This document shows, piece after piece, positions 1 to 55,718 of a stretch of DNA of 64,000 nt. The notes beneath the pieces are model-generated. The model saw only the letters and a program-made list of their open reading frames with translations, had not been told where the DNA came from and made no database searches. The translations under genes were made by a program, and so were the position numbers. The DNA comes from Solirubrobacterales bacterium (GTDB lineage Bacteria > Actinomycetota > Thermoleophilia > Solirubrobacterales > JACPNS01), in contig JASGFX010000011.1 of NCBI GenBank assembly GCA_047605325.1, positions 534-64,533 on the forward strand. The letters run 5' to 3'. Position 1 is the stretch's first letter. Every line of letters starts with the position of its first letter.

Positions 1-3000
1 GACCTTCGAGTTCGGCTCCGTCGTTCCGCAGTTGCCCGCGGCGGAGTCGGCGTCGGCGCAGGTCGGTGCGGCGTCGGCGGAACCGACGAGACCGGCCGGC
101 AGGAAGAACTTCGTGCGCATGATCGACGTGTCGGTGTCGGGACGGTTGACCGTCAGGGTGACGTCCTGGCTCGAACCGGCCTTGTAGTAGTCGCTCGACG
201 GGTCGTCGAAGTGCGCCGTGTCGGTCGGGTCACCCATCTGCAGCTTGATCGCCGCCGACTGGGTGTCGGTGCAACCGGGCAGGCCGCCGGTCACGGTGAA
301 CGGAGCCTGGACGGCCGGCGCGGTGCGCTGACCAACCGGACGGTCCTGCCATGCCCACGGGTCCATCGTCGCCTGGACGGCGTAGTCGCCACAGGTGCGT
401 GGGTTGGTGAGCAGCGCGTGCTCGCCGGAGCCAGTGGTCTTGAAGTGGATCGTCATGTCCGTGAACTGCAGGTCGGGCAGATCGTCGAACGTCGCGGTCA
501 CCTGACCGGTCTGGCCGGAGCCGACATTGCCGGTGCCGCCGGTCGGGACGTCGGACGTGCCGTCGACGTTGACCTGGCCCTGGCTGTAGAGCGAGGCGCC
601 CGGCAGCTCGACGTAGAGGCCCAGGCGATAGCGCGTGCTGGCCTGGTTGCCGAGCGGCGGAAGCAGGTAGATCGCGCCGTACGCGGAGTGCGTCGTCGTG
701 TCCTGAGCGTCGTTCGGGTTCGGCTTGTCGTTCGGCAGCAGCGGCGTGTCGAGCGACACGAAGCCGAGGCGCGAACTCGCCGGGCAGGCGGCTCCGCCGT
801 CCTTGACATCGGACTCGTCACAGGTCATGCCCGAGCCATAGTTTCCGATGCCCGGGTTCACGTTCATGCCGACGGGGAAGGTCGTGGTGATCTTCTTCGT
901 CGAGGACGAGTTGCCGGAGAACTTGAACGACAGGTCGAGACCGACCGGCTTGCCGCGCTCAGTCGTGCTCGGGTCTGCGACGACCGTCGGGTGGTACTCG
1001 GCGTTGTCGCAGTTGGTCGTCGTGAAGTTCTTCGACGGAGTCACCGAAGCGCCACCCGGAGCCGTCATCGCGGCCTCGAGCGTGTGCGTGCCGCAGCGCG
1101 ACGGGCTGATCATGAACGGCTGGCCGTTGACCGTGCCGTTGATCTTGATCTGCATCTGGCGGATGCGGACCGGCATGCCTTCGTAACGCTGCGGGATGAC
1201 CGTGTGGGTGTCGATCGTCAGATCGCTGGCGGTGCTGCCGGTGACGATCTGCGTCGCGACCGGCAGGTTCAGCTTGCCCAGGTTGTACGGGCCGACCTGG
1301 ACCGGAATCGTCACGTACAGGCGTGCCGGCTCGTCGCTGTTGGGCTTGACGTTGAAGAGGTCGCCAGTCATCGTCAACAGGTCGGTGCTGCTCGACGTGC
1401 TTCCGCCGGTGCCGATCTTCGTCGTGACCGATCCGACCTTGCTGGCTGCGGCGCAGTTGCCGGCATCGGCGACCGCCTGGTCGCAGCGCGGGGTGAGGAC
1501 GGTGTTGGCGACGAGGCCCTTGGGCAGGTGCAGGTCGAACTCACGGATCTGCTGCGTGTAGTCGCTGCGACCGACCGTCAGCGTGACGTCGGGGTTGCCC
1601 GCCGCCTGCGTCTGGTTGACCGGGGTCTCGCCCGGCTTGTTGACCGTGGCGTCGAAGGTCGGGTTGAACGGCTCGCTCGCCTGGCTGCCCGATCCGCCGT
1701 AGACGGTCGAGTAGGTGCCGTCGGAGGTCTCGACCGCTCCACCGGACTGCGGCGTCATCGCCGCCGAGACGGTCTGTGTTCCCGCAGTCTCGGAGTTCGT
1801 GAACAGCGCGTTCTGGCCGCTCGCGAACGTGATCTTCAGCTGGGTGAAGCCGAGGTCCGGGATGTTGTCGAACGTCGCGATCACGCGGCCGGTACCGGTG
1901 TCGGTCGAGCCGGTGCCGTTGGTGATGTCGCTCGAGCCGTCGACTGCGGTGGTGCCGCGGACGACCATCTTGGTGCCCGGCAGGTCGACGATCATCGCGA
2001 TCTTGTAGCGCGTTGCCGCCGTCGTGCCCGGGGTTTCGAGGTAGACCGAACCGAACTTCGTGCCGGGCAGCAGCGGGGTGACCAGCGAGATGTCGCCGAT
2101 CTTGCTGCCACTCGGGCAGGCGCTTCCGCCGGCATCGATCGCCGCGGTCGAGCAGCTCTGGAGGCCACCCGGGATGTTCGCGACGACGGACGGGTTGAGC
2201 GTCATGCCGTCAGGCATCGTGGTGACGACCTTGCCGATCGTCGGGTTGGCCGGGTCGGAGTCGATCTGCAGGGTCATGCCGGTCGGCTGGGCCGTCTGGC
2301 CGTTGGTGCCGGAGATCGTCAGGCTCGGCTTCGGCGAGAAGTTGCGCGGGCAACCGTTGACCTCGTAGGCGGCGCTGCGGTTCACGGCGCTGCCATTCAG
2401 CGGAGTCAGCTCCGCTGTGATCTTCGTGTTGCTGCCGTCGTCGCAGCGGCTCGGGTTCTTGATGAAGCCCTTGTCGTCGGACGTGTCGCCCGAGGTGCCC
2501 TGGGTCGCCTTGGAGTAGAGCTTCATGTCGAGCTCGGCGATGCGCACGCTGATGCCCTCGTAGCGGTAGGGCATCGTCGCCGTCGCGTCGACTCCGTAGT
2601 CGCCCTCGCGCAGGTGCGTCGAGACCGGGACGGTCAACTTGCCGAGGTCGTACGGACCGACCACCACAGGGACGATGACCGCCATGCGGGCGGGCTCGTC
2701 GCTGCTCGGCACGACGTTGTAGATCGTGCCGGCCATGTCGAGTGTCTCGCTGCCGGTTCCGAGCTTCGTCGTGACCTCACCGACCTGGCTTGCGGCGGGG
2801 CAGTTTGCGGCCGCCGCAGCCGACTGCGTGCAGGTCGTGTTCGTCGCCGTGGTGTCGGCGACGAGACCGACCGGCAGGTGCAGCTTGAACTGGCGCAGGT
2901 ACTCATCCTTCGCGCCGCCGCTCACGGTCATCGAGAGGTTCGTGTTCGCGCCGCTGGTCTTGTTGTCAGCGCTCGCGCTGAACGCCGGGTTGAACGGCTT

Positions 3001-6000
3001 GCTCGAGGTGCAGCCCGCGGTGTTGCTGAGGCTGTAGGTCGAGGTCGCCGTGGCCGCGGTGCCGCTCGGGTTGCCGGGGGTCAGCGACGAGCTCGGCGTG
3101 ATCGCCGAGGTGACGGTCTGCGTTCCGCAGCTGTCCGGGTTGGTCAGCAGAGCGCGCGGGCCGGTGTTGAAGTTCACCGTCATCTTGCTGAACGCGAGGT
3201 CCGGCACTGTGTCGAAGTCGGTCGTGATGCGGCCGGTGCCGGTGTCGGTGGCCCCGAGGCCGCCGGTCACGTTGCTCGAGCCGTCGACGTTGACCTTGCC
3301 GCGCAGCACCAGGTCGGTGCCCGGAAGGTGGACGACGATCGCCAGCTTGTAGCGGTTCGCGGCGCCGACGCCCGGGTCCTCGAGATACACGTTGCCGGTC
3401 TTCTGGCCGCTGAGCAGCGGCGTCTCGAGCGTGACCGTGCCTTGGTTGGAGCCGGCCGGGCAGGTGCTGCCGCCCGCGTTGATCGCCGCGGTGCTGCAGG
3501 TGGCCAGGCCGTTGCCGGCAGCCGCGTTGAGCGACATGCCGTCGGGCAGGGTCAGCAGGAAGCGGCTGATCGTCGAGTTGCGGCGGTTCGAGTTGATCGT
3601 CACACCGAGACCCGTCGGGACCGTGGTGTCGGCCGGTGTCGCGGTGACGTCGACCGTCGGAGTCGCGAAGAAGTTCTGCGGGCAGCCCGTCGTGGTGATG
3701 TCCGAAGAGACGTCGACCGGAGTCGAGCCGGTGTCGGAAGTCAGGTGGCCGGTCACCGTGTAGGTGCCGCACTTGCTCGGGACCGAGACGAAGGAGTTGC
3801 CACCGGCCTGGCCGTAGAGCGTGATGTCCATCTTGGACAGACGCACGGCGATGCCCTCGTAGCGCTTCGGAATCGTCGTCTTGGTGCTGACCGTCAGGTC
3901 GGAGTTGAGCTTCGTGCTGACCGGGATCACCAGCTTGCCGAGGTCGTATGGACCGACCAGGACGTTGGTGATCGCGGCGAGGCGCGCAGGCTCGTTGGCG
4001 TCGGGCTCGACGTTGTAGATGCCGCCCTGGATGTTCAGGTTGGCGGCGTCGCTCGTGCCGTTGCCGATGAAGCTGTCGAAGTCACCGACGATCTGCTCGG
4101 TGTCGCAGTTGCCGGCATTGGCGTCGGCCTGCGAGCAGTGTGAGGTCGCGGTCGTGGAGGCGACCAGGCCGAGCGGCAGGTCGAGGTCCAGCTGACGCAG
4201 GTAGCGCTGGTTGATACCGGTCGGGCGGTCGTAGTGGATCCCGAGGTTCGGGTGACTGCCGGCCGTGGCCGACGAGCCGCCACCGACGGTCACACTGAAG
4301 TTCGGCTGGAAGACATCGACTCCTGTGGTCGGTGTCGTCGTGATGTTCGACGTCGCGGTGCGGTCGTCGGAGACTTCATCGGCCGAGCTCGGCGTGAACG
4401 TCGCGCTGAAGGCTTGCGTGCCGCCCGGCTGCGGAGTGATCAGCATCGGGTTGGTCGAACTGAAGGCCATCGATAGCTCGGTGAAGCCGAGGTCCGGGAT
4501 CGAGTCGAAGTCGGCCGTGATCTGGCCGGTTCCGCTGTCGGTCGCCCCGGTTCCGCCGGTGATGTCAGAGGAGCCGTTGACCTTGACCTTGCCGTGGACG
4601 ACCAGCTTGGCGCCTGGCAGGCTGACCACCATCGCGACGCGGTAGCGCGTGTCGCCGGTCGCACCGCCCTGCTCGAGGTAGACGTTGCCGCTGTAGACCG
4701 TGTTCGGGTCGAGCAGCTGGGTCTTCAAGCTGACAGTGCCGATCCTCGACTCGTTCGGGCAGTTGGTCGCGTCGGAGTCGATCGTAGAGGTGCTGCAGAC
4801 CTGCAGGTTGTTGGCGAAGCCGGGGTTGATCTCGGTGCCGACCGGCATCGCGACCTGGACCCGGCCCATCGTCGGGTTGCTGAATGACGAGGTGACCTTG
4901 AACGTGAAGTTCGTCGGCGTCGTACGCGGCATGCTCGTCTGGCCGGCGCTGTTGGTTGCCTGGAAGGTCGGGCTCGCGGCGAACGAGTTGCCGCAGCCAT
5001 TGATCGTGATGCCCGAGTTGATCGTCGACGTGTCGGAGGCGTCGCTCGTCATCGTCGCGGCGATCGTCTTGGCGCCGCACTTGCTCGGGGCGACGATGAA
5101 CTTCGCGCCCGGCGTCGGCTCGCCCTTGATCACCATGTTCATCTGGCGCACACGCACCGCGATGCCCTCGTAGCGGCTCGGCAGCGTCGCCGAGGCCGTG
5201 ACCGAGAGGTCGGAGTTGAGCGTGGTCGGGACCGGAACAGTCAGCTTGCCGAAGTCGAACGGACCGACCTGGACCGGAACGACGGCCTGCAGGCGAGCCG
5301 GCGAGTCGGCGCCCGGGACGACGTTGTAGATGTCACCGAGGACCGTGTAGTCCTCGCCGACCGTGTCGCTGGAACCGAATGTCGTGGTGACGGTTCCGAC
5401 CCAGCTGGCCGCGGTGGTCGCAGCGCAGGTCGCGGCATTGGCATCGGCCTGCGGGCACTGGCTGACTCCGCCGGCCTTGGTGTAGGCGACGAGGCCGACC
5501 GGGAGTTTCACGTCGAACTTCTTCAGTTCCTTCATGCCCAGCGGGTTGCCGACGTTCAGCGAGAGGTCGGGGTTGCCCGCCGAGGTCGACGACGAGAGCG
5601 CCGCGCTGAAGGTCGGGTTGAAGGCCGTCACCGTGCTCGTTCCGCCGCTGACCGAGAAGCTGCCGTTGCGCGCCGTCGTCGTCGACGTCGAGTTCGGGGT
5701 CAGCGTGGTGGCGACGTTGTAGCTGCCGGCCGTCTTCGGGTTGACGAACAACTTGTTCGAGCTGCTGAAGGCGATCGACATGTTCGTGAAGCCGAGGTCC
5801 GGGATACCGGCGAAGTCGGCCGAAACCTGGCCGGTCGCGGTGCCCGCGGCGTCGGTCGAACCGAGGCCGCCGGTCACGTTCGAGGAACCATTGACCAGCG
5901 AACTGCCGTGGATCACCATGTCGCGGCCCGGCAGGTGCAGGACCAGCGCCATCTTGTAGCGCGTGGCTGCCGTGTTGCCCGGAGTCTCGAGGTAGACCTC

Positions 6001-9000
6001 ACCGGAGACGGGGTTCGGCAGCAGCGGTGTGTTCAGGGTGATCGACGCAAGGTTCGAAGTCGTGAGCTTGCAGGGGTTCGTCGATGACGCGTCGGAGTCG
6101 ATCGTCGAGCAGGCCACGAGCGTGTTGCCGACGCCCGGGTTGAGCTCCATGCCCTGCGGGAAGGCGAGCTGGACGCGGTTCGTCGTGGCGTTGTCGTCCG
6201 GCAGGGCGATACCCATCGTCAGGGCCGTCGGCGTTCCGGCGGTCGCCGGGCTCACCGCGGTGGTGACGGTCGGGTTGTACGGCGGCATCGTGGCGTTGCA
6301 GCCGGTGGTGGTGAACGTCGACGAGTTGTCGGCTCCGTTGCCGCCCGACGCGAGGTCGGTCGAGTTGTCACTGGCGGTGAAATCGGCGCTGATCGTGTGC
6401 GTGGCGCACTTGCTCGGGTTGGTCATGTAGCTCTTGCTGTTGACCGAGGAGGCGAGCTGCATGTCGAGCGAGCGGAGGCGCACCTTGATGCCCTCGTAGC
6501 GCTGCGGCAGCGTGGCGTTGATGTCGATTCCATAGTCGGCACGCAGAGTGGTGGCGACCGGGATCGTCATGTTGCCGAGGTTGTACGGACCGACGACGAC
6601 CGGGATGATCGCGGCGAAACGGGCCGGCTCGTTGGCGTTCGGCGTGACCTGGAAGATCTTGCCGCCGGTCAGGCTGAGCAGACTCGAGTCGGACTCGCCG
6701 ATCGCTGTGGTGAAGGTTCCGACCTGCGAGCTGGCTGCGGTCGTCGCGCAGGATGCGGCGGCGGCGCTGGCCTGGGAGCACGGCGTGGTCACCGCGCTGG
6801 TGTTGGCGACCATGCCGGTCGGCAGGTGGATCGTCATCGCCTTGAGCAGCTTGTTGCCGTTCGGGCGCTCGACCTTGAGGCCGAGGTTGCCGTGACCGGC
6901 CGGCGCGGTGCTCGCGTTGGTCGCGGTCAGCTTGACGTTGAACGGCGAGGTGCCGCAGCCGGTCAGCGGGTACGACGGGTTCGTCGTGCGCGTCGCACCG
7001 GTGTTCGAGTTCGGCGTGAAGATCGCGTTGAATGAGTTAGTGCAGGTCTCGGGGTTGACGACCATGGCGTTCGAGCCGCCGTTGAAGGTCATCGTCAGGT
7101 TCGTGAAGCCGAGGTCCGGGATGTTGTCGAAGTCGGCGCTGATCACACCCGAGCCGGTGTCGACGGTGCCGGTGGCGCCGGTCGAGGCCGTCGGGATGTC
7201 GCTGCTTCCGTCGATCCGGACCTGACCGCGGACGGTCAGCTTCTGGCCGGGCAGGTCGATGATCATCGCCAGCTTGTAACGGTCATCCTTCGTGTTGCCC
7301 GGGTTCTCGAGGTAGACCTTGCCGGTCTGAGTCGCCGCGAGCAGCGGAGTCGTCAGGCTGACGGTCGCGATCTGCGAGCCGCTCGGGCAGCCGGATCCAC
7401 CGGCATTGATCACTGCCGTCGAGCAGGTGGCCAAGCCGTTGGCGAAGGACGGGTTGATGTCCATGCCGTCGGGGAAGGTCAGCTGGATCCGTTTGAACGT
7501 CGGGTTGCCCTGGTCGGAGTTGATGTTGAAGATCAGTCCCGCGGGCGCGGCCGGCGTGCTGTTGTCGCTGGTGACCGCGATCGACGTGTTGCCGGTGAAA
7601 CCGGCGCAGCTGGTCGGGGTGAAACCGAACGAGCCGGTGGCCGTCTGCGGCGAACCGCCTTCGGACGTCATCGTCGTGCTGATCGTGTGCAGCGAGCAGA
7701 TGCTCGGGTTGACCATGAAGGCGTTGCCGGTGGCGGCCGTCTTGGCCAGGCCCATCTGCAGCGAACGCACGCGCACGGCGATGCCCTCGTAGCGCAGCGG
7801 CAACTGGGCCGTCGCGGTGATCGAGTAGTCGGCGTTGAGTGCGGTCGTGACCGGAATACTCAGCTTGCCGAGATCGAACGGTCCGACGACGACCGGCATG
7901 ATCGCGGCGAAACGTGCGGGCTCGTCGGCGTTGGCGGCGACGTTGTAGAGCGAACCGCTCAGCGGGTAGGTCGCCGAGCCGGAGCCGATCGTCGCCCCGA
8001 CGGATCCGACGACCTGGTTGGCGGCGCATCCACCTGCTGCGGCGGTGGCCTGCGAGCAGCGCGTGGTGGCCGTCGTGTTGGCGACCAGACCGGTCGGCAG
8101 GTTGACGACGATCTTGCGCAGGTTCAGGTTGTTGTCGGGACGGTTGAAGGTCAGCGTGACGTCGGGGTTGCCGGCCGAGGTCAACGGCGTGACGCCGCCG
8201 GCGAAGGTCGGGGCGAAGCCCTGCGAGCAGTTCGTGTCCGGCGTGTATCCGTCGGTCACCGTCTTCGTGGCGCCGGTTCCGTTCGGCGTCCAGATCGCGC
8301 TGAACTGCGAAGCGGTGCAGGCCGTCGGATTGACGAACAGCGCGTTGCTGCCGCTGTTGAAGGCAACCTTCATCGTCGAGAAACCGAGGTCCGGAATGCC
8401 GCTGAACTCAGCGCTGATCTGTCCGGTTCCGCTGTCGACCGCGCCGGTTCCACCGGTCGGGATCGTCGAGGAGCCGTCGACCAGAACCTGGCCGTGGAGG
8501 ATCAGGTCCTTGCCCGGCAGGTGCACGACGATCGCGGTCTTGTAGCGCGTCGAGGCGGTGTTGCCCGGCTGCTCGAGGTAAACGGCGCCGGTCTGCGGGT
8601 TCGAGAGCAGCGGCGTCGTCAGCGTGACGGTTCCGAGCTTGGAGCCGTTGCTGTCGCAGGCGGCCTGGTTGCTTGCGAGGTTGCTGTCGCTGCAGTAGGC
8701 GAGACCCGTGCCGGCGGCGGGGTTGAGTTCGAAGCCGGCCGGGAAGGTCAGCTTGACGCCCTTGGTCGTCGGGTTGTTCAGCGTCGTGCCGAGGTCGAAG
8801 GTCAGACCGACCGGCTGGCCGGCAGCCTTCGTCGACGGCGTGACGGTGAGCGTCGGCGTGTCGGTGTAGGGGCGGTTGCAGCCGGTGAAGTTCGCGGCGC
8901 TGGTGCGCGAGACCGTCGTGCCGTCGCCGGCCTTCAGGTCGGCGCCGATCGTGCCGGAGAGACAGGCGCTCGGGTTGATCATGAACGGCTGACCGCCGAC

Positions 9001-9675
9001 CATGCCGTTGATCGTCAGGTTGACTGCGCGGACGCGGACGTCGATGCCCTCGTAGCGCTCTGGCAAGGTCGAGAAGGTGTCGACACCGTAGGTGCGCGTG
9101 CCGGAGTCGGTCGTTCCGTCGTTGAGCGCGGTCGAGATGTCGACCGGCATGTTGCCGAGATTGAACGGTCCGACCTGGACCGGGATCAGAGCGGCGAGGT
9201 GCGCCGGCTCATTGCTGCCCGGGACGACGTTGTAGACCGTGCCGCTGAGCGAAAGACGCTCGGCCGCGGCGCCGATCTCGGTCGAGATCGTTCCGACCGC
9301 GCTGCTCGGCGTGCTGCTGACGCAGGTGCCAGCGGTCGCGTCTGCCTGCGGGCAGCGGGCGACGTTGGTCGTGTTGGCCACCAGGCCGACGGGCAACTTC
9401 ACATTGAAGTTCTTGATCGTCCTGACGTTCGTGTCGGTGCCGTTGTTGGTGCCGACGGCGATGTTCAGGTTCGGGTGCGCTCCGGCCGTGTAGTCGGAGA
9501 GCGTCGCGCTGAACGTCGGGTTGAAGGCCTGGGTGCAGTTGGCCGTCGTGTCGAACGTCTTGGTTCCGGTGGAGGCAGTCGCGCCGGTGCCGTTGGCGGT
9601 CACGCTGGTGCCGATCTGCCAACCGGTCTGGCAGGACGACGGCGTGATCAGCATCGCGCGGTTGCCGCCGTTGAG
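1..9675 (-). CDS. Giant tandem-module secreted protein, distal segment (3' end lies beyond window start)
   Basis: Minus frame whose codons end on coordinates divisible by 3. My spot translations are open and have almost all G/C at third positions: 9601-9675 (LNGGNRAMLITPSSCQTGWQIGTSVTANG), 4981-5040 (ASDTSTINSGITINGCGNSF) and 1-60 (CADADSAAGNCGTTEPNSKV). The ORF track lists no minus ORF in this frame between 1 and 9675. That fits one ORF with no in-window stop; the track also omits the open-ended ORF at 63024->64000. Seven copies of the module motif RYEG(I/M) occur (antisense GATGCCCTCGTAGCG-like) at 1174, 2551, 3850, 5161, 6487, 7780 and 9043. A gene caller would probably start it at ATG 9654. 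Confidence 0.8.
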
Positions 9676-9677
9676 GG

Positions 9678-12068
9678 TCAGGTCAGGGTGCCGAACGCGA
9701 GGTCCGGAATCGCCGGGAAGTCGGTGACGATCTGACCGGTTCCGGAGTCCTTGGCGCCGGTTCCACCCGACGGGATCGTCGACGAGCCGTCGACCGTGGC
9801 GCCGCCGTGGACGATCAGCATGCGGCCCGGAAGCTTGACCACGAGCGCCAGCTTGTAGCGGGTGCTGGCGAGCGAGCCCGGCGTCTCGAGGTAGAGCTTG
9901 CCGGTGTAGGTGCCGGAGATCAATGGCGTGGTCAGCGAGACCGTTCCCTGCTGCGCCGCGGCCGGGCAGTTGTCGGTCGTCGTCGTGATCGCGTCGATCA
10001 CGGCCGTGTCGCAGGTCATGTTCGAGCCGGCGTTTCCGACGGCCGGGTTGATCGACATGCCGACCGGGAAGGTCAGCTTGACGTCGCCGATCGACGGGTT
10101 GCCGTCAGGCGAGGTGACGCCGACGGTCATGCCGGTCGGGGTCTGGGCCGAAGTGCTGATACCACTGATCGCGAAGGTCGGGGTACCGGCGCTGAATGCG
10201 GTCGGGCAACCGGTGGCGACGTAAGCGGAGGAGTTGTTCGCGGCGCTGGTGTCGTTGGTCGAATCAGCGGACGTGAAGTCTGCGCTGATCGTCGCACCGG
10301 CGTTGCACTTGCTCGGGTTGTTCAGGTAGTTCTTCGAGTTGACGGTGCCGTTGATCACCATCTGCATCGTGCGGATGTAGACAGCGATGCCCTCATAACG
10401 CGTCGGCAGCGTTGCCGCGAGGTCGATGCCGTAGTCGCTGCGCAGTGACGCCGAGATCGGAAGCGTCAGGTTTCCGAGGTTGAACGGACCTACCTGGACC
10501 GGGATGACAGCCTGGAAACGAGCTGGCTCCTCGGCGTTCGGCACGACGGCGAAGATCTTCCCGCCGGCGAGCGACACGTTCTCGTTGCCCGAGCCGATCG
10601 CCGTGGTGAAGGTTCCGACCTGCGAAGTCGGCTGAGTGGTCGCGCAGCTCGCCGCAGCGGCCGACGCCTGGGTGCACTGGGGTACGTAGCCGGTGCTGGT
10701 GTTGGCGGTGAGGCCGGTCGGGAAGTGGATCGCGAGGTTCTTGAGCTGACGCTCCTTGTCGTTGCGCGCGATGTTCATCGTCAGCGTCGGGTGGGCGCCC
10801 GCCACGTAGGTGCTGGCGGTCGCCGTGAACGACGGGTCGAAGGCGTTGGTCGAGCCGGTCGGCGTGTAAGTCGCCGAAGCGGTCGTGTCCGTCCCCGGGT
10901 TGCTGTCGGAGTTCGGCGTGAAGATCGCGTCGAAGGTCGCGGCGTCGTTGGTGCGCGGGTTCACGACCATTGCGCGGTCACCGCTGTTGAAGGCCATCGT
11001 CAGACCGGTGAAACCGAGGTCCGGGATGTTGTTGAAGTCAGCGACCATGCGGTGCGAGTCGAGCGTGTGCGCGCTGTCGATCGTTCCGGTCGCGCCAGTT
11101 GAGGCAGTCGGGATGTCACTCGAACCCGGGATCGTCAGCGAGCCGGCGACGACCAGCGGCTGGCTCGGGACGTTGACGATCATCACGACCTTGTAACGCG
11201 TGGCCGCGGTGTTGCCCGGCGCGACCACGTAGACGTTGCCGGCGATCGGGCTGGTCGAGAGCAGCGGGGTCGTCAGCGAGACGGTCGCGATCGAGGTCGC
11301 ACCCGAGCAGCCCGCGACGGTGGCGGCGCTGCAGGTGGCGCCGGCGGAGCTCAGCAGGTTGCCGAAGGCCGGGTTGATGTCCATGTTCAGCGGGAACTTC
11401 AGCTGGACGCGCTTGATCGTCGGGTTCGACTGGGTCGCGGCGTCGGAGCCGATCGCGAAGGTCAGTCCGACCGGCGCGGCGGCCTGCAGCGTGCTCGGAG
11501 TCACCGACATCGTCGGCTCCTTGCCCGAGGTGAAGTTCTTCGGGCAGCTGCTGATCGCGAAGGACGGCGAGGTGGCCGTGGTGAAGCTTGCGCTGTCGTC
11601 CTTGTAGACATCGGCGCTGAAGTCGCTGACGGTGCGGCAGATCGACGGGTTCTCGAAGAACTGGCTTCCGCTCACCGTGCCGTTCAGCGTGACGCTGAGG
11701 CTGCGGGTGCGGATGTCGATGCCCTCGTAGACCTTCGGCAGCGTCGCAGTCGCGTCGATGCCGTAGTTGCTGCGCAGCGAGGTCGTGACCGGGACCGACA
11801 GCTTTCCGAGGTTGTACGGACCGACGGTGACCGGTATCACGGCCTGCAGGCGTGCGGGCTCGGTGCTGTTCGGGACGACGTTGTAGACCGAACCGGCCGG
11901 GAGCGTAAGCGTCTCGGCGTCGGATCCGACTGTGGCCGTCGCAGTTCCGACGACCGGCGTGGCGCAGTTGCCGGCGGCAGCGACGGCCTGCGTGCACGTC
12001 GCGACGTTGCCGGTGTTGGCGACGAAGCCGACCGGCAGGTGGTAGACGACCTTGCGCAGGTAGTCGAC
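9678..12068 (-). CDS. Giant tandem-module secreted protein, middle segment (read in a different frame from its neighbours)
   Basis: ORF track 9678..11840 (720 aa) shows the same module architecture, e.g. LPTRYEGIAVYIRTMQMVINGTVNSKNYLNNPSKC and TPLISGTYTGKLYLETPGSLASTRYK. I extended the frame upstream to 12068, where it reads DYLRKVVYHLPVGFVANTGNVA. It ends at a TGA created by the 5-bp duplication at 9676-9685. Confidence 0.75.
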   Translation of the reverse strand, partial: VDYLRKVVYHLPVGFVANTGNVATCTQAVAAAGNCATPVVGTATATVGSDAETLTLPAGSVYNVVPNSTEPARLQAVIPVTVGPYNLGKLSVPVTTSLRSNYGIDATATLPKVYEGIDIRTRSLSVTLNGTVSGSQFFENPSICRTVSDFSADVYKDDSASFTTATSPSFAISSCPKNFTSGKEPTMSVTPSTLQAAAPVGLTFAIGSDAATQSNPTIKRVQLKFPLNMDINPAFGNLLSSAGATCSAATVAGCSGATSIATVSLTTPLLSTSPIAGNVYVVAPGNTAATRYKVVMIVNVPSQPLVVAGSLTIPGSSDIPTASTGATGTIDSAHTLDSHRMVADFNNIPDLGFTGLTMAFNSGDRAMVVNPRTNDAATFDAIFTPNSDSNPGTDTTASATYTPTGSTNAFDPSFTATASTYVAGAHPTLTMNIARNDKERQLKNLAIHFPTGLTANTSTGYVPQCTQASAAAASCATTQPTSQVGTFTTAIGSGNENVSLAGGKIFAVVPNAEEPARFQAVIPVQVGPFNLGNLTLPISASLRSDYGIDLAATLPTRYEGIAVYIRTMQMVINGTVNSKNYLNNPSKCNAGATISADFTSADSTNDTSAANNSSAYVATGCPTAFSAGTPTFAISGISTSAQTPTGMTVGVTSPDGNPSIGDVKLTFPVGMSINPAVGNAGSNMTCDTAVIDAITTTTDNCPAAAQQGTVSLTTPLISGTYTGKLYLETPGSLASTRYKLALVVKLPGRMLIVHGGATVDGSSTIPSGGTGAKDSGTGQIVTDFPAIPDLAFGTLT

Positions 12069-12069
12069 G

Positions 12070-15000
12070 GCGCCCGTTCGTGACGGTCATCGTCAGGTTC
12101 GGGTTGGCCGCCGGGGCGCCGCTGGTCACGCTGGCGCTGAAGCTCGGGGCGAAGCTGACCGTGCGGCAGTTCGTGTTCGTGTTGAACGAACTCGAGCTGG
12201 TCGCGGTGGTCGTCGGGTTCGTGTACGCGTACATCGTCGCCGTGATCGTGTTCGTCGCCGCGCAGGTCGTCGGCGTGATCAGCAGCGCCTTGCTGCCGGA
12301 GTTGAGCACGACGCTCAGCGCCGTCCAGGCGATGTCGGGCATGTTGTCGAAGTCGACCGTCAGCGCACCGGTGCCGCCGTCGACCTTGCCGGTTGCGCCG
12401 GAGGGCACGTTGCTGTCACCGTCGAGGCGCACGACACCGCGGGCCACAACGGTCTGACCCGGGATGTTGATCAGCACCGCGACACGGAAGCGCGTGGCCG
12501 CGTTGCCCGAGGGGTCCGGAGTCTCGAGGTAGACCTTGCCGGTGAACGGTCCGCCGGAGATCAGCGGAGTGGTCAGCGAGACGGTGCCGAACTGCGTGGC
12601 GCCGGCAGTGGAGCAGAGATCGCTGCTCGGGGTGGAGTTGTTGATGTTCGCCGTCGAGCAGGTGGCGGCGCTGCCGAGGTTGCCGACCGCCGGGTTGACT
12701 GTGGTGCCCGCCGGGAAGGTGAGCTTGAGCTCCTTCATCGTCGAGTTGCCGGCCGCGTTGGTCACCGCCGTGGTCAGGCCGATCGGAGCCTGGTTCTGCG
12801 GCGCTGCCGGGCTCGTCGTCATCGTGGCCGTCGGCGCGGTGGCTCCGAAGGTCGTACCGGTGCATGTGCCGGTCGTGAAGCTGGCGCTGCCGTTCGCGGT
12901 GGTGCCGAGCGCCGACGTCATCGTGACGTTGGTCGTCTTGGCCGTGTTGCACTGACTCGGGTTGGTCAGGAAGTTCGCGCTGTTGCCGGGGGCGACTCCG
13001 TTGATCGTCACCTTGAGCTGGCGGTACCGGACCTTGACACCCTCGTAACGACCCGGCAGCGTGACCGAGGCGTTGAGGCCGTACGGGTCAGCATCAGAGG
13101 CGCCGCGCATCGAGACGTCGACCGGGAGGGTCATCGAACCGAGGTTGTACGGGCCGAGCACGACCGGGACGATCGCGGTCAGCTTGGCCGGGGCGGTCGC
13201 CGGGGCGACGGTGTTGTAGAGCTTGCCGGTGAGAGTCGCGAGACCGACCGTCGGGGTCGCGATCAGCGCTGAGCCGACCGATGCGGTGACGGTTCCGACC
13301 TGGGTGTTGGCCGGGCAGTTGGCCGCGTCAGCCAACGCCTGCGTGCAGGTCGGGACGTTTGCGGGAGCGCCGGTCAGGCCGGATGGCAGCTTGAAGGTCG
13401 CGCCGGCGAGCTGCTGGTTGACCTCCGGACGGTCGACCTGGAGCGTGAGATCGGGGTGCGCGTTCGGGGTCGTGGTCGAGACGGTCTGGCTGAACGTCGG
13501 CGCCCAAGCGCCGCCGCCGTTGGCGGTGGTCGTGTAGCTGGAGGTGGCCGACGCCGTGTTCGGCGTCGCGGAGGTGTTCGTCGCGGTGAACGCCGCGTTG
13601 AACTGCTGCGAGGCGCCAGAGATCTCGGAGTTCACGAACATGCGCGGACTCTGGTTGAAGTTGAGCGACATCGACGAGTAGGCGACGTCGGGCAGTCCGG
13701 TGAAGGTCGCGACGATCTGGCCGGTCGAGACCTCAGAAGTCGAGCCGAGTCCGCCAGTCACGCCGCCTGCGGTCGAACCGGAGACGGTCGCTCCGCCGCG
13801 CACGATCACGAGACCGCCCGGCATGTTCAGGTACATCACGAACTTGTAGCGATCGGCCGTGCCCGAGCCGGGCTGCTCGAGATAGACCGAGCCCGTGACC
13901 GCGGTCGGCAGCAGCGGTGTGTTCACGGTCACATCGGCAACCTTCGAAGCGACCGCCGCACATGTGTTGGTCGTGTTGTTGAGGTCGTTGGTGACGTTGG
14001 CCGTCGGGCAGGCGGTGGCGCCGTTGGCGAAGCCGGGGTTGATCTCGAGACCGGCTGGCATCGTCACGGTGACGGCGTTGATCGTCGACTGTTGGACCGT
14101 CGTGCCGGTGACACCCGACTCGGTCTGAGCCTGGTTGACCGTCACGTTCAGCCCGGTCGGCTGGGCGGCCACCGTGGTTTCCGGAGTGACCGTCACGGTC
14201 GGCGAGAAGCCCTGGGCAGCGCATCCGCTCGTCGTCTGGTCAGTGTCGGACGGCGTCATCGTCGAAACGGTGCCGCTGCCGGGCGTGTTGCCCGAGAGAT
14301 CACCGTTCGAGGTGATCGAACTGTTGAAGTTGAGGACCTGATTGCACTTGGACGGGTTGATCAGGAAGGGCTTGCCGTTGACGTAACCGTTGAGTCGCAG
14401 GTTGATCGACTTGTAGGCGATCGGCACGCCGAGAATCGACTGCTGGAGTCCCAGTGTCGAAGCGCGCAGGCGGAAGGTCGACGCCGAAGGAAGCGTCATG
14501 TGCGTGATGTTCACGACGTTGCCGAGGTTGAACGGACCGACCACGGCCGGCGTGATGATCGCCAAGCGCGCAGTGTCGCCGGAATCTGGCTCGGCCATGT
14601 AGACCGTTCCGCCCAGCGTCGCGGGGCTCGAACCGGTCCCGGCCACGACCGTGACCGTTCCGACCGCGGCGGCGGCCGGGCAGCCGTTGGCCTGAATCGT
14701 CGCGAGGTTGCCGGTACAGCGATTTGCCGCGTCGATCACCTTGACGGAGCCGGCCATGCCGGTCGGAAGGTCGACCACGAAGTCGCGGATGTTGTCCTGG
14801 CGGTCGCCACGGGTGACCGTGAGGTCGAGTCGCGGGGACTTGCCGACGCCGGTCTCCGGCGTCGTGGCGGTCGCGTCGGACATGCTCGTGAGATTCGCGG
14901 AGAAACCAGGGTTGAAAGCGCTGAACGCGCAGGTCGCGTCGCCGGATTCGCTGATGGTGCGGCGCTGGCCGTTGGCGACAGACGCCGTCGGGCTGAGCGC

Positions 15001-16581
15001 ACCCTGTCCGGTCGTGGTCCACGGAGTCAGCGTGATGCCGAAGTCCGCGGTCGTGGTGCAGACGTTCGGGTTGAGCAGCAGCTGCTGCGCGGCGTTCGGA
15101 CTCGATACCGGGCCCGATGAAGGCGTGCCGACACCGGTCGATGCGGAGTTGAAGTCGAGGATGAACGATCGATAGTTGAACTGCGGCAGGCCGGCGCCGG
15201 CGTTGTCGAAGCTCACGACGACATTTCCGGTCGTCGAGTTGACGGTCGCGGTTCCCTGGAACTTCGTCGCAGTCGCGCCACGCGCGGCATAAACGTAGAG
15301 GCGGTACTTGCCGGCCGCTTCGTCACCAGTCTGAGGCTGCCCGAGATAGAGCTTTCCGACAAGGTTGTCGGTGAACTCAGGTGCATCGACCGCGACCGTT
15401 CCGATCTCGCTACTGCTCGGACAAGTCGGCGCGTTGCCGCTCGTTGTCATACCGGCCACCGGCATCAAGAACTGAGCCTCGGTGCAGCCGGTTGAGCCGA
15501 GGCGCGTCGCCACGCCCGGGTTGATCTTGTAGCCCGACGGCAGAGTCATCGCGAAGACCTTCGCGTAAGCGCCCTGCGCGACGTTGGTTGTCGGGACGGT
15601 GTTCGTCAGCGTTGCACGGATTCCGACCGGGGCTCCGGCCTCGTCGGTCGTCGTCGACATCGAGAACCCGAGGTTCAGCGCGGGGTAGCTCGCGCAGTTG
15701 GGTGTGCTGGTACCAGTCCCCGCACGCGAATCCAGCGTGCCGTCAACCGGGTGGACGTCGGCGGTCGGGCTGGCGTTGGAGTCGTAGCCCATCGTGTACG
15801 CCGTCGTGTTCCAAGCATCACAGCGCGTCGGGTTGGTCAGGAACGGCTTGCCGCTGGGCGCGATGCCGTTGATCGTCTGGCTGATCGTCTTGACACGGAT
15901 GCTCGCGGTGCCGCCCAGCGCACCGGTGTACTGGGTGCGCGGAAGCGTGTCCAGAATCTCGAGGCGCAGACCGTTGTCCCAAGGTCGCAGCGTGATCTTC
16001 GCCGTCATGTCCATCGACTGCGTACCGGCCAGTGAACATGCGCCGAGGGCGCCTCCGCTCGGCGTACCGCTGACGTGGACGCCGACGTAGGTCGGCACTT
16101 CAGGCGTTGCGGTCGGCCGGTTCTTCAGCAGATAGAGGTTTCCGGTCAGGGTCAGGCCGCACTCGCCGACCCACGCCGATGCGGTCACGCCGACAGAAAT
16201 CGTTCCGATCACACTGCTGGCCGGGCAGGTGCTGTAGCCGTCGGTGTTCGATGCCGGCGAGCCCGCGGTGTAGTCGACGGTGTTGCAGCGGTTGGCCTCG
16301 GTGATCGCGTTCGGATCACCGATCAGTCCGGCAGGCCAGTCGAATGAGAGGCGCTGGATGTCGTCGCCGCTGTCTCCGTTGCCGTTTCCGTCGGCGTAGT
16401 TGAGCGACAGCGATTGCGTGACGTTGCCGTGGGCGCCGGGAGTGTTGGTCGAGTAGGTGGTCGACGTGGTCGGCCAGACGGTCGCGCCTGCGTTCTGCGT
16501 GAAGGCGACCGTAAAAAGGCATGCAGCGGCCAGGGCACTCAGCCAGAGAAGAGCAATTCGCGACGTCCGTGTCACGTTCAT
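12070..16581 (-). CDS. Giant tandem-module secreted protein, N-terminal segment with signal peptide
   Basis: ORF track 11116..16821. The plausible start is ATG 16581 (MNVTRTSRIALLWLSALAAACLFTVAFTQNAGA-TVW), with GGGGG 5 nt upstream. The sequence is protein-like down to ...NPNLTMTVTNGR at about 12070. Beyond that the same frame becomes Arg/Pro/Gln-rich nonsense (RRRLPAQGRLPPAGRLRRQHRQ) until its nominal stop at 11116. Confidence 0.85.
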
Positions 16582-16946
16582 ACGAACCCCCGCGCTTGCG
16601 GAAAGATTCGGTGCTCCTTCAATACAGCTGGCAGCCGGGCCGTCGTGACCCTTGGCACTTGCGTGCATTCTCTGCATCCCCTTGATTTGATTCATGTCCC
16701 CGGTTTCGAAAGCGAATCCGTTCGTCCGAAAATCTGCACCGGACGGTGAAGTACTTGTTTGTGTCGGCGCGAGGCCTCTAACCCTTGAGTAACAACAGGT
16801 TCTTGTCAGCGCGCGGACCACGCACCCTTGCGTCGTCCGGGCAGCTCAGGCGACCCCCCTCCCTGGTGGCCGTATGGTTGAGCCGCGCGATCAGCGCGAA
16901 TCAAGAGTAGCCGTGAGCAGGTCAGCCCACAATGCTGATTTTTCAG

Positions 16947-18023
16947 CTAATTGAAAAGTCCTTCAATCACGCTGGTGAGCGCGGAAACCGAGGGTCTTCC
17001 CTCATCCAGGACGGTGCGCCGGCCGGGCCGCGTGGCCGGTGACCAGGCCACGATTTCGGCCAAACGGGCCGGAGCGATGCCAAATCCGCCCAATGCGGAC
17101 TTCATCCCGACTTCATCCAGGATGGTCTTGACGGCATCGATGTCGCCGCCCTGGAGGGCGGTTGCGACAAGCGTTCCGAAGGCGACCTGCTCGCCATGGG
17201 GGGCCGTTCCAGGCTCCAGCGCGTCCAGCGCGTGGCTGATCAGGTGCTCCGACCCCGAGCAGGGCCGTGACGATCCGGCGATCTCCATCGCGAGGCCGCT
17301 GAGCACGAGTCCGTCGAGCAGTCTTTGCGCCAGATCGAGCGGCAGCTCGCCTGAGCCGAGCGGCGTGAGATCGAGCCCTTCGATCAACAGATGCGCGCAG
17401 GAGCTGAGCAGCGCCGCGAAGTCGTCGACCTGCTCTTCGCCCGATTGCGCGGCGATCCGCCAGTCGATCAGCGCCGTGCGGTTTCCCAACAGGTCGCCGA
17501 CTCCGGCGCGCGCGAAGGCGATCGGCGCAGCCGCGATCGTCGTGAGGTCGGCGAGCACCGCGACGGGCAGCGCCGAGCGTTCGCTCACGACCTCGCCGGT
17601 GGTTTCGCGGATCACGGAGATCGGCGAGGCGATGCCGTCGGCCGAGAGCTGCGTCGGGATCACGATCACCGGTAGCTCGGAGGCAAGCGCCGCGGACTTG
17701 GCGACGTCGATCGGGCGACCGCCGCCGATCGCGATCAATACGTCACGGGCCCGGGCGATCTCGGCGATGCGCGCGACTTCGGCGCGCGAGTTGTCGGTCA
17801 CGACCTCACGCGACGCCGATTCGACCTTCAGGTCGCTGCAGACTGCGGCAGATTGCGAACTGCCCGAGACCAGCAGCGGCGCCGTGGCGCCGAGCGCTTC
17901 GAGCACGCCTGCGAGCTCGGCGGAGAGCTCATCGACGCCCTGCGTCGCGCGCAGGAACTGAGGTAGCTCGATCTGACGCTTCGCGGCGATCGCCCCGATC
18001 AGCTGATCGAAGCCGTCAGACAC
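16947..18023 (-). CDS. sn-glycerol-1-phosphate dehydrogenase family protein (AraM/EgsA-like, iron-ADH/DHQS-like fold)
   Basis: In-frame part of ORF 16947..18269. Motifs: IAIGGGRPIDVAK, IVIPTQLSADGIASP, RAGVGDLLGNRTALIDW, GSSRPCSGSEHLISHALD, PHGEQVAFG. The GTG start at 18023 overlaps the upstream stop by 8 nt (GTGTCTGA). The upstream part of the ORF is Ser/Arg/Thr-rich and looks non-coding. Confidence 0.75.
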   Translation of the reverse strand: MSDGFDQLIGAIAAKRQIELPQFLRATQGVDELSAELAGVLEALGATAPLLVSGSSQSAAVCSDLKVESASREVVTDNSRAEVARIAEIARARDVLIAIGGGRPIDVAKSAALASELPVIVIPTQLSADGIASPISVIRETTGEVVSERSALPVAVLADLTTIAAAPIAFARAGVGDLLGNRTALIDWRIAAQSGEEQVDDFAALLSSCAHLLIEGLDLTPLGSGELPLDLAQRLLDGLVLSGLAMEIAGSSRPCSGSEHLISHALDALEPGTAPHGEQVAFGTLVATALQGGDIDAVKTILDEVGMKSALGGFGIAPARLAEIVAWSPATRPGRRTVLDEGRPSVSALTSVIEGLFN

Positions 18024-18741
18024 GACTCTCGCGCTCCGCGATCGCGGGAGCGATCGTGTTGTCGGCGCGGTCGAGATCGTCGTGATCGTCGATCTCAACC
18101 CACTTCGTGCCGCCGACGCGTTCGATTCGCACGCGGCGCTCTTTCGCGAGTGCTTCGATCGCGTCTTCGTAGTAGACCTGCGTGTTGCCGCCGGAGACGA
18201 ATTCCTCGAGGATCTCGGCAAGGCGCGGGCCGTCAGCCGGATCGATACGGGTGAGGCCGATGTACTCACCGACGGCCCGGTCGAGCGCTATCGACTTGTG
18301 CAGACGGTCGAGGCCGTCGCCGGCCTCGGTCGCCTTCATCGACTCCTCGTCGACTGCGAGCTCGTCGTCGACGAGGATCGCGGTGCCTTCGGTTTGCGCG
18401 AGGCGGCGCGCCAGTTCCGGCTCGAACAGCAGGTCGCAATTGACGATCGTGCAACCCCGTGCGACGACCTCGCGCGCCTGCCACAGCGAGGTGATGTTGT
18501 TCTCGGTGTCCCAGCGCTCGTTGAAGATCGTTTCGACGTCGTAGCCATCAAACGCGTCGGCGGCGTGGCCCGTGATCGCGATGATCCGCTCGAACCCGGC
18601 GGCGCGCAGGTACTCGAGACTGCGATCGACCAGCGGACGTCCACCGGCCTCGACCATCGCCTTGGGTCTGTCGCCGGTCAAATCGCCCAGCCGAGAACCG
18701 CGGCCGGCGGCGAGGTAGATGACAGGAAGCTGATCGCTCAC
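18016..18741 (-). CDS. Nucleotidyltransferase (GxGxRL-type sugar-/alcohol-phosphate nucleotidylyltransferase, LicC/RmlA-like)
   Basis: In-frame part of ORF 18016..18921. Begins VSDQLPVIYLAAGRGSRLGDLTGDRPKAMVEAGGRPL from GTG 18741. The upstream portion of the ORF lies over the palindrome region and looks non-coding. Confidence 0.8.
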   Translation of the reverse strand: MSDQLPVIYLAAGRGSRLGDLTGDRPKAMVEAGGRPLVDRSLEYLRAAGFERIIAITGHAADAFDGYDVETIFNERWDTENNITSLWQAREVVARGCTIVNCDLLFEPELARRLAQTEGTAILVDDELAVDEESMKATEAGDGLDRLHKSIALDRAVGEYIGLTRIDPADGPRLAEILEEFVSGGNTQVYYEDAIEALAKERRVRIERVGGTKWVEIDDHDDLDRADNTIAPAIAERESRV

Positions 18742-18774
18742 GCAACAACCGTACCCGCCACCCCTCCACAGGCT

Positions 18775-18795
18775 TTGCAAGCTTCGAGCTTGCAG
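18775..18795. promoter_or_regulatory. Palindrome copy 1: TTGCAAGC-TTCGA-GCTTGCAG
   Basis: Read directly. It has 8-5-8 inverted-repeat geometry with a 7/8 arm match and lies 34 bp upstream of the nucleotidyltransferase GTG. Confidence 0.5.
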
Positions 18796-18837
18796 GCCGA
18801 AGTTGGCGAGATTTGGCCCTTGTCCATGGGGTTTTCT

Positions 18838-18858
18838 TTGCAAGCCCGAAGCTTGCAA
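18838..18858. promoter_or_regulatory. Palindrome copy 2: TTGCAAGC-CCGAA-GCTTGCAA
   Basis: Perfect 8-bp arms, exactly 63 bp from copy 1. Confidence 0.5.
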
Positions 18859-18900
18859 GAAATTCCCGTTGTTCAAGGGGTTTCTCGCGGCGGGATTCCG

Positions 18901-18921
18901 TTGCAAGCTCGAAGCTTGCAA
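18901..18921. promoter_or_regulatory. Palindrome copy 3: TTGCAAGC-TCGAA-GCTTGCAA
   Basis: Perfect 8-bp arms, exactly 63 bp from copy 2. Its last base is the A of the candidate ATG 18921. Confidence 0.5.
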
Positions 18922-24741: not shown

Positions 24742-24768
24742 GCGGGAGAGGCTAACCGCGCAGGCGCG

Positions 24769-25974: not shown

Positions 25975-25985
25975 GTTGCTGATTT

Positions 25986-26012
25986 GTCGGCGCGCGCATT
26001 CCGCGCGCCGAC
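25986..26012 (-). terminator. GC-rich hairpin GTCGGCGCGCG-cattc-CGCGCGCCGAC downstream of the dehydratase gene
   Basis: Perfect 11-bp stem with a 5-nt loop, between stop 26040 and the next start at 25974. No U-tract, so it could be an attenuator or RNA-stability element rather than a terminator. Confidence 0.3.
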
Positions 26013-26039
26013 GGGGGAAGCAGGGGAAGTGCGAGCAGT

Positions 26040-27965: not shown

Positions 27966-28011
27966 GAAGGAGATTCTACGGGCGAAGCCTGAGAATTTCC
28001 TGCGCGTGCAC

Positions 28012-29022: not shown

Positions 29023-29026
29023 CGCT

Positions 29027-30124: not shown

Positions 30125-30137
30125 ACTCGCGCCCCAA

Positions 30138-48176: not shown

Positions 48177-48195
48177 CGCGCAAGGAGCCCGGCCC

Positions 48196-51583: not shown

Positions 51584-51585
51584 GT

Positions 51586-53076: not shown

Positions 53077-53077
53077 G

Positions 53078-55715: not shown

Positions 55716-55718
55716 CGA

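Follow-up and report, generated by a model that had tools for sequence, protein, structure and literature searches.

A giant Sec-exported protein of paired sandwich-type domains, encoded beside a glycan gene cluster, as a candidate surface fibre of Thermoleophilia-type actinobacteria

Introduction

Giant bacterial adhesins, such as SiiE of Salmonella with its 53 BIg domains, the RTX adhesins LapA and MpIBP of Pseudomonas and Marinomonas, and Ebh of Staphylococcus, are extracellular proteins of thousands of residues, in which diverged Ig-like sandwich domains form a linear array with few charged residues and a divergent N-terminal (distal) module. Here, we describe a gene of similar layout on the minus strand of a 64,000-nucleotide (nt) stretch of a Solirubrobacterales contig (JASGFX010000011.1), the whole of which is called the window. 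The region probably covers the N-terminal ~5,500 of the ~7,000 residues of a Sec-exported surface protein of a Thermoleophilia-type actinobacterium, which we read as a disulfide-stapled surface fibre, held on the wall by a basic domain and functionally tied to the flanking glycan gene cluster. We put the probability of this explanation at about 0.6, a joint figure for the architecture, the mechanism and the state of the gene; the function is what we infer from these.

The protein differs from the giant adhesins in several respects. It has no sequence relationship to them (no Pfam or NCBIfam hit), it uses a Sec signal peptide instead of a type 1 secretion signal, its unit is a domain of ~215 amino acids (aa) that alternates between two versions, A and B, with conserved Cys pairs in place of Ca2+ sites, and its likely anchor, as predicted from orthologues, is a basic C-terminal domain.

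The S-layer (slg) loci of Geobacillus stearothermophilus (SgsE and WsaB) and Paenibacillus alvei (SpaA) offer a second comparison, since there, too, a surface structural gene lies beside genes for a flippase, a Wzy_C enzyme, glycosyltransferases and an initiating phosphoglycosyl transferase. Compared to SgsE and SpaA, the protein described here is 5-7 times larger, has no SLH domain and is known from genes alone, and the cluster in the window adds a glycerol-1-phosphate dehydrogenase-like (G1PDH-like) enzyme, a nucleotidyltransferase and a CDP-alcohol transferase. Non-covalent wall anchoring via an anionic polymer is exemplified by CWB2 of Clostridioides difficile, which binds PSII (PMC4973711). 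The likeness to CWB2, SLH and GW anchoring lies in a basic C-terminal region, the lack of an LPXTG motif or membrane anchor, and a gene beside those for a probably anionic glycopolymer; unlike these modules, the C-terminal domain of the orthologues, whose binding is putative, has no sequence match to them and no Pfam family. The giant protein thus falls in no named known family; by analogy, it would work like the SiiE, LapA-type and Ebh adhesins, and its gene arrangement resembles S-layer glycoprotein loci. It is a new variant of a familiar protein type, not a new kind of system.

Results

The giant gene encodes a diverged array of paired domains

The gene starts at ATG 16581 with a Sec-type signal peptide (MNVTRTSRIALLWLSALAAACLFTVAFTQNAGA), as a preliminary description of the window had claimed, and a G-rich, ribosome-binding-like GCGGGGG lies 7 nt 5′ of this start. 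The antisense string GATGCCCTCGTAGCG, reported there as recurring through the gene, was found exactly at 2551, 3850, 5161, 6487, 7780 and 9043, and with two mismatches at 10386 and 11718, all of them positions given in that description; these eight matches compare with 0.34 expected, and eight were reached in no shuffle. The R-Y-E-G motif occurs ten times at a spacing of 421-459 aa, which equals the claimed period of 1263-1377 nt. A hidden Markov model (HMM) built from the eight intact modules of the window, which are ~430 aa long and align at 42-47% identity, finds 12 full modules and the first 131 positions of a 13th, in agreement with the earlier count of at least 12 diverged tandem modules (Table 1). 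Modules 3-12 score 411-612 bits, compared to 240 for the divergent module 2 and 78 for module 1, with E-values down to 1e-186.

Each module consists of two halves of ~205-250 residues, which are homologous to each other (hhalign probability 97.9%, E 3.5e-13, 191 columns, 28% identity); therefore, the true unit is one ~215-aa domain in alternating versions. A and B are, as far as sequence can tell, two old versions of this domain, with one A-B pair making up one ~430-aa module. The two related halves per module of the preliminary description are hence homologous as proposed, and its repeat of ~430 aa gives way to the ~215-aa A/B domain as the basic unit. The window holds at least 24 such sandwich-type domains, and an intact orthologue, P0002, holds 34 in 17 modules.

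Six Cys are conserved in each of modules 2-12, and the divergent module 1 has five. Their pattern (C-x9-C and NPSxC...TGC in A, C-x11-C in B) is present in all of modules 2-12, and the same six columns are invariant in a 26-sequence family alignment that includes distant members, which agrees with the disulfide-type Cys pairs noted earlier. The three conserved pairs per module probably form disulfides, made by the DsbA/VKOR pair encoded nearby (Table 1), which is likely to be the oxidative-folding pair for the six to eight Cys of each module. The composition is rich in Thr, Ala, Gly, Ser and Asn (14.5, 10.8, 10.0, 9.2 and 6.6%) with few charged residues (D+E 6.4%, K+R 5.1%), again as first described, and the 5,527-aa body in the window has a net charge of about -72 and a Thr+Ser content of 23.7%.

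The modules match no described family and are predicted to be Ig-like sandwiches

Searches of Pfam and NCBIfam with the N-terminal 560 aa and with a two-module stretch gave no family at E<=1 save a noise hit to TTR-52 (E 0.14). At this threshold, there was no match to the Big/Ig-like, cadherin, FN3, Cna_B, RHS, RTX or collagen-type profiles of either collection or to Pfam DUF11 (PF01345), and a PDB sequence-profile search had 0 hits at E<=1. DUF11 proteins are likewise large secreted proteins of Ig-like repeats, and the same organism has them, including a 2,763-aa one in the window; however, the modules of the giant protein are not detectably homologous to them, and hhalign gave a probability of 0.1% between half A and the small DUF11 protein of the window (37631-38128). 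The earlier statement that the modules belong to no nameable family, and that they are not DUF11, BIG/Ig, cadherin, FN3, RHS, RTX or collagen repeats, holds against Pfam, NCBIfam and PDB.

A structure prediction, as the preliminary description had suggested, was made with AlphaFold2 and gave a predicted local distance difference test (pLDDT) score of 76 with the eight window modules alone and of 88.8, with a predicted template modelling (pTM) score of 0.82, with 26 diverse family sequences. The resulting model is confident and almost wholly β-strand, with two short helices in each Cys loop. Foldseek found no match in PDB for the whole module, and the domain-level matches were only Ig-like sandwiches (YcnI, BslA and YweA), at a probability of 0.98-1.0 and a target-normalised template modelling (TM) score of 0.48-0.61, with 10-13% identity, E 0.004-0.09 and a root-mean-square deviation of 6-9 Å over ~130 of the ~215 residues of one domain. 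These best structural matches, which are generic, suggest that the modelled domain shares the Ig-like β-sandwich fold class with BslA/YweA and YcnI; hydrophobic cap or copper-site residues were neither looked for in the modules nor are they implied.

Weak Foldseek matches to cohesins (E 0.05-0.06, target-normalised TM ~0.28) and to phage tail fibres raise the question of whether the modules could bind other secreted proteins or serve as a scaffold for them, like a cohesin scaffoldin, or belong to a toxin or a phage-derived fibre. We regard this as very improbable, given that every such match has a low TM and E>=1e-3, that no dockerin, toxin or phage genes lie nearby and that the chromosomal neighbourhood is conserved. 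A phage-fibre origin in particular was dropped because the viral fold library gave noise alone.

The domains form a large family centred on Thermoleophilia

Word-indexed searches under-report this family (one hit with one module, nine with the 26-sequence alignment), because words rich in T, S, G and A swamp the index; hence, an exhaustive profile search was needed. It returned 4,586 cluster representatives at E<=1e-3, of which 1,570 remain at E<=1e-30. The top matches are giants, namely P0002 (7,161 aa, 17 matched stretches), P0003 (6,729 aa, 16) and others of 2,500-5,300 aa, and most of the listed matches are ~900-1,050 aa long, with two modules and a C-terminal region. Eight members of ~900-1,060 aa had no Pfam family above the curated cut-off and no NCBIfam family, with one sub-threshold DUF11 match (21.3 bits). 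The source names are all 'hypothetical protein', with the exception of one evidently spurious 'CusF' label. In IMG, two giant members (P0004 and P0153) are named 'Cu/Ag efflux protein CusF', a label that looks wrong.

The organisms named among the matches are Conexibacter, Baekduia, Solirubrobacteraceae, Solirubrobacterales and unclassified Actinomycetota, and a scan of one genome per species found 21 loci, all in Thermoleophilaceae, Solirubrobacterales, Conexibacteraceae or unclassified actinobacterial metagenome-assembled genomes (MAGs). The phyletic spread, a check proposed in the preliminary description, thus points to Thermoleophilia-type actinobacteria in both searches, and the named or located members all appear to come from Thermoleophilia-type MAGs. 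NCBI lists a 358-aa fragment (P0173), with 76% identity to the window protein, under a 'Mycobacterium sp.' MAG, probably owing to a binning error. By these comparisons, the modules are assigned to a large, unnamed, Thermoleophilia-centred family of ~215-aa A/B sandwich domains. The new repeat family proposed earlier is therefore undescribed, as stated, but neither rare nor unique, with 4,586 representatives and intact orthologues of 6,729 and 7,161 aa in public collections.

The window protein is colinear with residues 115-5361 of P0002, at 45-68% identity in nearly all 250-aa segments and 41% at one off-diagonal segment. Because this identity generally exceeds that between the modules inside the window, the array is old and is not being homogenised, in keeping with the earlier view that the copies are diverged and not the product of a recent amplification.

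Several Solirubrobacterales MAGs (L020-L024) carry a ~1,100-aa member directly 3′ of an ORF of 780-1,340 aa, with a short overlap (6156-8648 and 8519-11965 in L020); two such pairs occur in L024. Weak FN3, PD40 or NHL (β-propeller) matches are seen in some of the upstream ORFs, and two of these ORFs have no Pfam hit. Five or six of the ~1,000-aa paralogues follow a secreted FN3/β-propeller-like protein, and the upstream ORF and the ~1,100-aa family member may form a two-gene cassette.

This copy of the gene carries two frame changes

This sequence does not contain the single reading frame of >5,500 codons that the preliminary description claimed. Beyond about codon 1502, translation in the frame of ATG 16581 gives Arg-rich nonsense, up to a stop at 11116-11118. 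According to the stop-codon map, this frame is open over 16845-11119, a second frame is open over 12086-9681 and scores 957 bits against the module HMM, and the 16581 frame is open again over 10104-1, which includes the stretch 1-9675 for which the earlier description had inferred an open frame. Hence, between ~12075 and 9681, the coding sits in another frame and then reverts to that of 16581. With all frames read, site 1 (near 12075) passes from NPNLTMTVTNG to AVDYLRKVVYHLPVGFVANTG, and site 2 (near 9685) from IPDLAFGTLT to LTLNGGNRAMLITP; with one base dropped at site 1 and one added at site 2, the repaired translation runs without a stop for 5,527 aa. When the module HMM is aligned to the unrepaired six-frame ORFs, site 1 separates HMM positions 1-92 from positions 94-428, which lie in different frames, and at site 2 module 5 ends at position 428 in one frame and module 6 resumes at position 11 in the other.

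The orthologous gene is one open frame of 4,643-7,210 codons in nine loci (L001, L002, L005-L008, L010, L012 and L014), so both frame changes are peculiar to the window sequence. Since the protein similarity crosses both sites and the nine orthologues are uninterrupted, this is one gene with two frameshifts, and the single giant ORF is wrong for this sequence and right for the gene in relatives. A mechanical ORF list gives products of 1,901, 720 and >3,217 aa, as would be expected if three separate genes (16581-11116, 11840-9678 and ~9654-<1) encoded independent proteins of the same family. That reading is scarcely credible, as its boundaries cut modules mid-domain with the HMM coordinates continuing exactly across them, the first ORF ends in ~320 aa of Arg-rich nonsense, no signal peptide begins the second or the third piece, and all orthologues are single ORFs. 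For annotators, the practical point is that gene callers would split this frameshifted copy into three unrelated ORFs.

At site 1, the orthologue in L005 reads AAC CCG GGC GCC ACG GTG, and the window lacks the CC at the boundary between the C run and the G run (AAC[CC]GGGCGCC), besides a natural difference in length by one codon. At site 2, a single base is absent before TG, and the simplest candidate is a C, which restores ACC CTG ACC CTG ACC CTC and the peptide IPDLAFGTLT(L/M)TLNGGNRAM, equal in length to the orthologues (CTG in L005, ATG in L001 and L007). Both sites look like base losses at C runs. Programmed frameshifting was rejected, since there is no slippery motif, the nine orthologous genes (4,600-7,200 codons) are uninterrupted and stops follow in the entry frame. 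A misassembly between repeats was judged unlikely because the module register and length are kept within 1-2 nt at both sites.

The two frameshifts (~12075 and ~9685) are thus sequencing errors or very recent inactivating mutations, with the balance leaning somewhat towards error. If they are real, the giant gene is a pseudogene, in which translation would end after ~1,500 correct and ~320 nonsense residues and no full-length fibre would be made. This is a serious alternative, if short of an even chance. It is favoured by the stops that follow the two frame changes in the entry frame, by the fact that the orthologues are all intact, by the frequent loss of giant surface-protein genes in general, and by a second broken gene in the window, bacA/uppP (undecaprenyl-diphosphatase; 30844-31660, plus strand). 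There, Pfam positions 3-67 fall in ORF 30844-31167 and positions 118-256 in ORF 31196-31660, and near 31130-31195 the similarity crosses all three frames in ~60 nt, which amounts to two more frameshifts. However, four frame breaks in 64 kb are also compatible with an indel-prone assembly, missing bases at C runs at both sites are the usual signature of homopolymer sequencing error, and the shifted segment shows neither in-frame stops nor decay and keeps a third-position GC of 0.91; a plot of the third-position GC phase gave no further unexplained frame switch in the window. The same strain or a closer relative was not found either in a scan of a genome collection with the unique N-terminal 560 aa or in metagenome scans with the exact DNA across site 2 and with a 236-aa segment, the nearest fragment among the hits checked being 76% identical to the window protein. 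Together, the breaks are compatible with either an indel-prone assembly or a strain with a few real, recent lesions.

In a low-coverage MAG (1.5x), the orthologous giant gene of L009 has one in-frame stop (5452-5456), which parts 1,069 and 2,445 codons in the same frame and is probably an assembly error.

The missing 3′ end probably encodes a basic wall-binding domain

Comparison with P0002 places the 3′ end of the giant gene ~1,800 codons past coordinate 1, and the part beyond the window must, by this comparison, hold four to five modules and the C-terminal domain. The median net charge over the last 200 aa is +29 for 98 family proteins that have a C-terminal tail, and the ~265-aa tails of P0002 and P0003 have net charges of +37 and +47. 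The C-terminus of P0002 (...VHSVKAGDKKLK) has no LPXTG motif and no hydrophobic segment, and the orthologue tails in general have no LPXTG, membrane segment or Pfam family. Pfam searches found no SLH domain on the window modules or on the full-length orthologues. Taken with these features, the basic ~200-aa C-terminal domain would probably hold the giant protein on the wall non-covalently. The window has a GC content of 66%, which, along with its DsbA/VKOR genes and its FhaA-FhaB-PstP-RodA-PbpA-PknB cluster, fits an actinobacterial chromosome.

The giant gene is linked to glycan and alcohol-phosphate genes

The 365-nt stretch 5′ of the giant gene is likely to be its own promoter region (Table 1). 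Beyond it, the G1PDH-like gene and the nucleotidyltransferase gene lie directly 5′ of the giant gene in 12 of the 12 loci with a visible 5′ flank, and the CDP-alcohol transferase, flippase and Wzy_C genes follow in line in those with a longer flank. The neighbour proteins are 52-89% identical to those of the window, so the linkage is kept across well-separated species. The same upstream gene order was found in L001 and L002, where the DMFA2_C/FlgD_ig, LytR_C and PglF-like genes are also syntenic and the giant gene is followed by GT2, GT4 and GT2 glycosyltransferase genes; next in L001 comes a Bac_transf initiating transferase, and the last visible gene of L002 is cut and unassigned.

PglF-like and DegT enzymes, a Bac_transf transferase, a flippase and a Wzy_C protein are the parts set of Neisseria-type O-glycosylation and of Geobacillus-type S-layer glycosylation. 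Polysacc_synt, Wzy_C, PglF-like and DegT genes are present in the window, and Bac_transf and glycosyltransferase genes lie 3′ in L001; the Wzy_C protein could be an oligosaccharyltransferase, a polymerase or a ligase. Such a set around a structural gene would also be expected if the giant protein, or the whole family, were an S-layer glycoprotein that forms a two-dimensional lattice, with the neighbouring cluster as its glycosylation locus. The acidic character and the high Thr+Ser content of the protein, a single weak Foldseek match to the S-layer protein 7ptp (E 0.04), and the known roles of the Wzy_C-type O-oligosaccharyltransferases WsaB and PglL in S-layer and general O-glycosylation are in line with this. 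However, a protein of ~7,000 aa and 34 domains is far bigger than known lattice subunits, and a linear string of sandwich domains suggests a fibre; moreover, there is no SLH or other S-layer anchoring domain and no evidence of lattice formation, and no such clusters lie beside the ~1,000-aa paralogues, although these would suit a lattice better. An S-layer is therefore an unlikely reading. The preliminary description had named an S-layer-like or adhesin fibre: a surface fibre or adhesin is in keeping with the predicted fold, with the signal peptide and with the gene neighbourhood, and we take the fibre to be the likelier of the two forms.

Table 1. Coordinates of the giant gene, its modules and frameshift sites, and neighbouring genes in the window.
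Feature	Position	Strand	Remarks
Giant surface-protein gene	1..16581	-	5′ end and ~5,527 codons inside the window
Start codon and Sec-type signal peptide	16483..16581	-	aa 1-33, NAGA/T cleavage-like site; from translation
Module 1, divergent N-terminal copy	15232..16500	-	78 bits, HMM positions 55-405
Module 2, divergent	13699..15090	-	240 bits
Module 3	12343..13695	-	545 bits
Module 4, spans frameshift site 1	11031..12342	-	411 bits
Module 5	9714..11027	-	610 bits
Module 6, spans frameshift site 2	8401..9710	-	467 bits
Module 7, copy modelled with AlphaFold2	7123..8397	-	607 bits; pLDDT 88.8, pTM 0.82
Module 8	5809..7122	-	587 bits
Module 9	4501..5805	-	593 bits
Module 10	3208..4500	-	612 bits
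Module 11	1864..3207	-	601 bits
Module 12	481..1863	-	591 bits
Module 13 start, cut by window edge	19..480	-	HMM positions 1-131
Frameshift site 1	12066..12081	-	16581 frame to 11840 frame; DNA ACGAAC/GGGCGCC/GTCGAC
Middle segment in shifted frame	9681..12075	-	most of module 4, module 5, first residues of module 6
Frameshift site 2	9678..9692	-	back to 16581 frame; DNA ACC CTG ACC TGA CCC TC
Stretch 5′ of giant gene, no gene identified	16582..16946	-	365 nt; from sequence and ORF layout
G1PDH-like Fe-ADH enzyme	16947..18269	-	NF002022, 219 bits, below cut-off
Nucleotidyltransferase (NTP_transf_3)	18016..18921	-	conserved neighbour
CDP-alcohol phosphatidyltransferase	18813..19865	+	conserved neighbour, opposite strand
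Wzx-type flippase (Polysacc_synt)	19788..21323	-	
Wzy_C-domain protein	21320..22846	-	
Rest of glycan cluster	22843..30364	-	in order: DMFA2_C/FlgD_ig, LytR_C, PglF-like 4,6-dehydratase, DUF354, DegT aminotransferase
DsbA-like thioredoxin and VKOR, adjacent	47391..48648	+	actinobacterial disulfide-forming pair

Other genes in the window

A second very large secreted protein is encoded at 38162-46453 on the minus strand, as a 2,763-aa ORF with at least ten DUF11 repeats and weak DUF7507, DUF7619 and CARDB matches, and is followed by the gene for a small 165-aa DUF11 protein (37631-38128, minus strand). The N-terminal part of the large ORF overlaps a well-supported Ser/Thr kinase gene on the opposite strand (45743-47263), so its true start is probably near 45700. 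A conserved actinobacterial cell-growth cluster (49790-59167, minus strand) comprises genes for FhaA, an FHA protein, a PP2C phosphatase, RodA/FtsW, a PBP transpeptidase, a PASTA kinase and a further kinase, and a D-Ala-D-Ala ligase gene lies at 48636-49694. At the far end of the window are genes for an HNH endonuclease (61585-62322) and an AlkZ-like DNA glycosylase (63024-63998), both on the plus strand.

Discussion

We propose that the exported chain would fold into a long, stiff, mildly acidic, Thr/Ser-rich fibre of stacked sandwich domains, with its Cys pairs oxidised to disulfides by DsbA/VKOR. A sandwich domain is typically 4-5 nm long, and at this length 34 domains would give a fibre of roughly 150 nm. 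The flanking cluster would make a wall glycopolymer, for which the G1PDH-like enzyme, the nucleotidyltransferase and the CDP-alcohol transferase would supply alcohol-phosphate groups, and the polycationic C-terminal domain would tether the acidic fibre to this anionic, alcohol-phosphate-bearing polymer. Alternatively, or in addition, the Wzy_C-type enzyme of the cluster may O-glycosylate the Thr/Ser-rich fibre. The role of such a fibre would be in the adhesion, spacing or protection of the cell surface. The disulfides, the fibre shape, the wall binding by the basic domain, the glycosylation and the adhesive or protective role are all what we infer from the genes and models.

Several points weigh against this proposal. 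The C-terminal domain lies outside the window, so that the anchoring is argued from the orthologues alone, and neither the recognised wall-binding domains (SLH, LysM, GW and CWB2) nor LPXTG were found in these. The ~1,000-aa paralogues lack the glycan neighbourhood, and the two that were checked had no shared partner genes. The gene cluster could make an unrelated wall polymer and adjoin the giant gene for other reasons, and this strain does not make the protein if its frameshifts are real. No experimental datum exists for any family member, and a search of the literature on S-layer and surface proteins of Solirubrobacterales, Conexibacter and Thermoleophilia found no published description.

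A broader and distinctly tentative idea, which we think improbable as a whole, is that the A/B domains build an envelope structure of Thermoleophilia that has not been seen before. In this picture, the surface would be coated by the many ~1,000-aa paralogues, with long fibres contributed by the 17-module giant. A new type of polycationic wall-binding domain would hold both on a glycopolymer bearing glycerol phosphate, the product of the conserved flanking cluster, and O-glycosylation of the fibre might be a further task of this cluster.

Thermoleophilia (Solirubrobacterales and Thermoleophilaceae) are abundant actinobacteria of soil and groundwater. The family described here has thousands of members and no Pfam, NCBIfam or PDB entry, and its domain boundaries, A/B alternation and Cys pattern would allow for the annotation of proteins that are now called 'hypothetical'. 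In addition, the giant form is strictly linked to a glycan and alcohol-phosphate cluster, which offers a testable starting point for studies of how the envelope of these bacteria is built and decorated.

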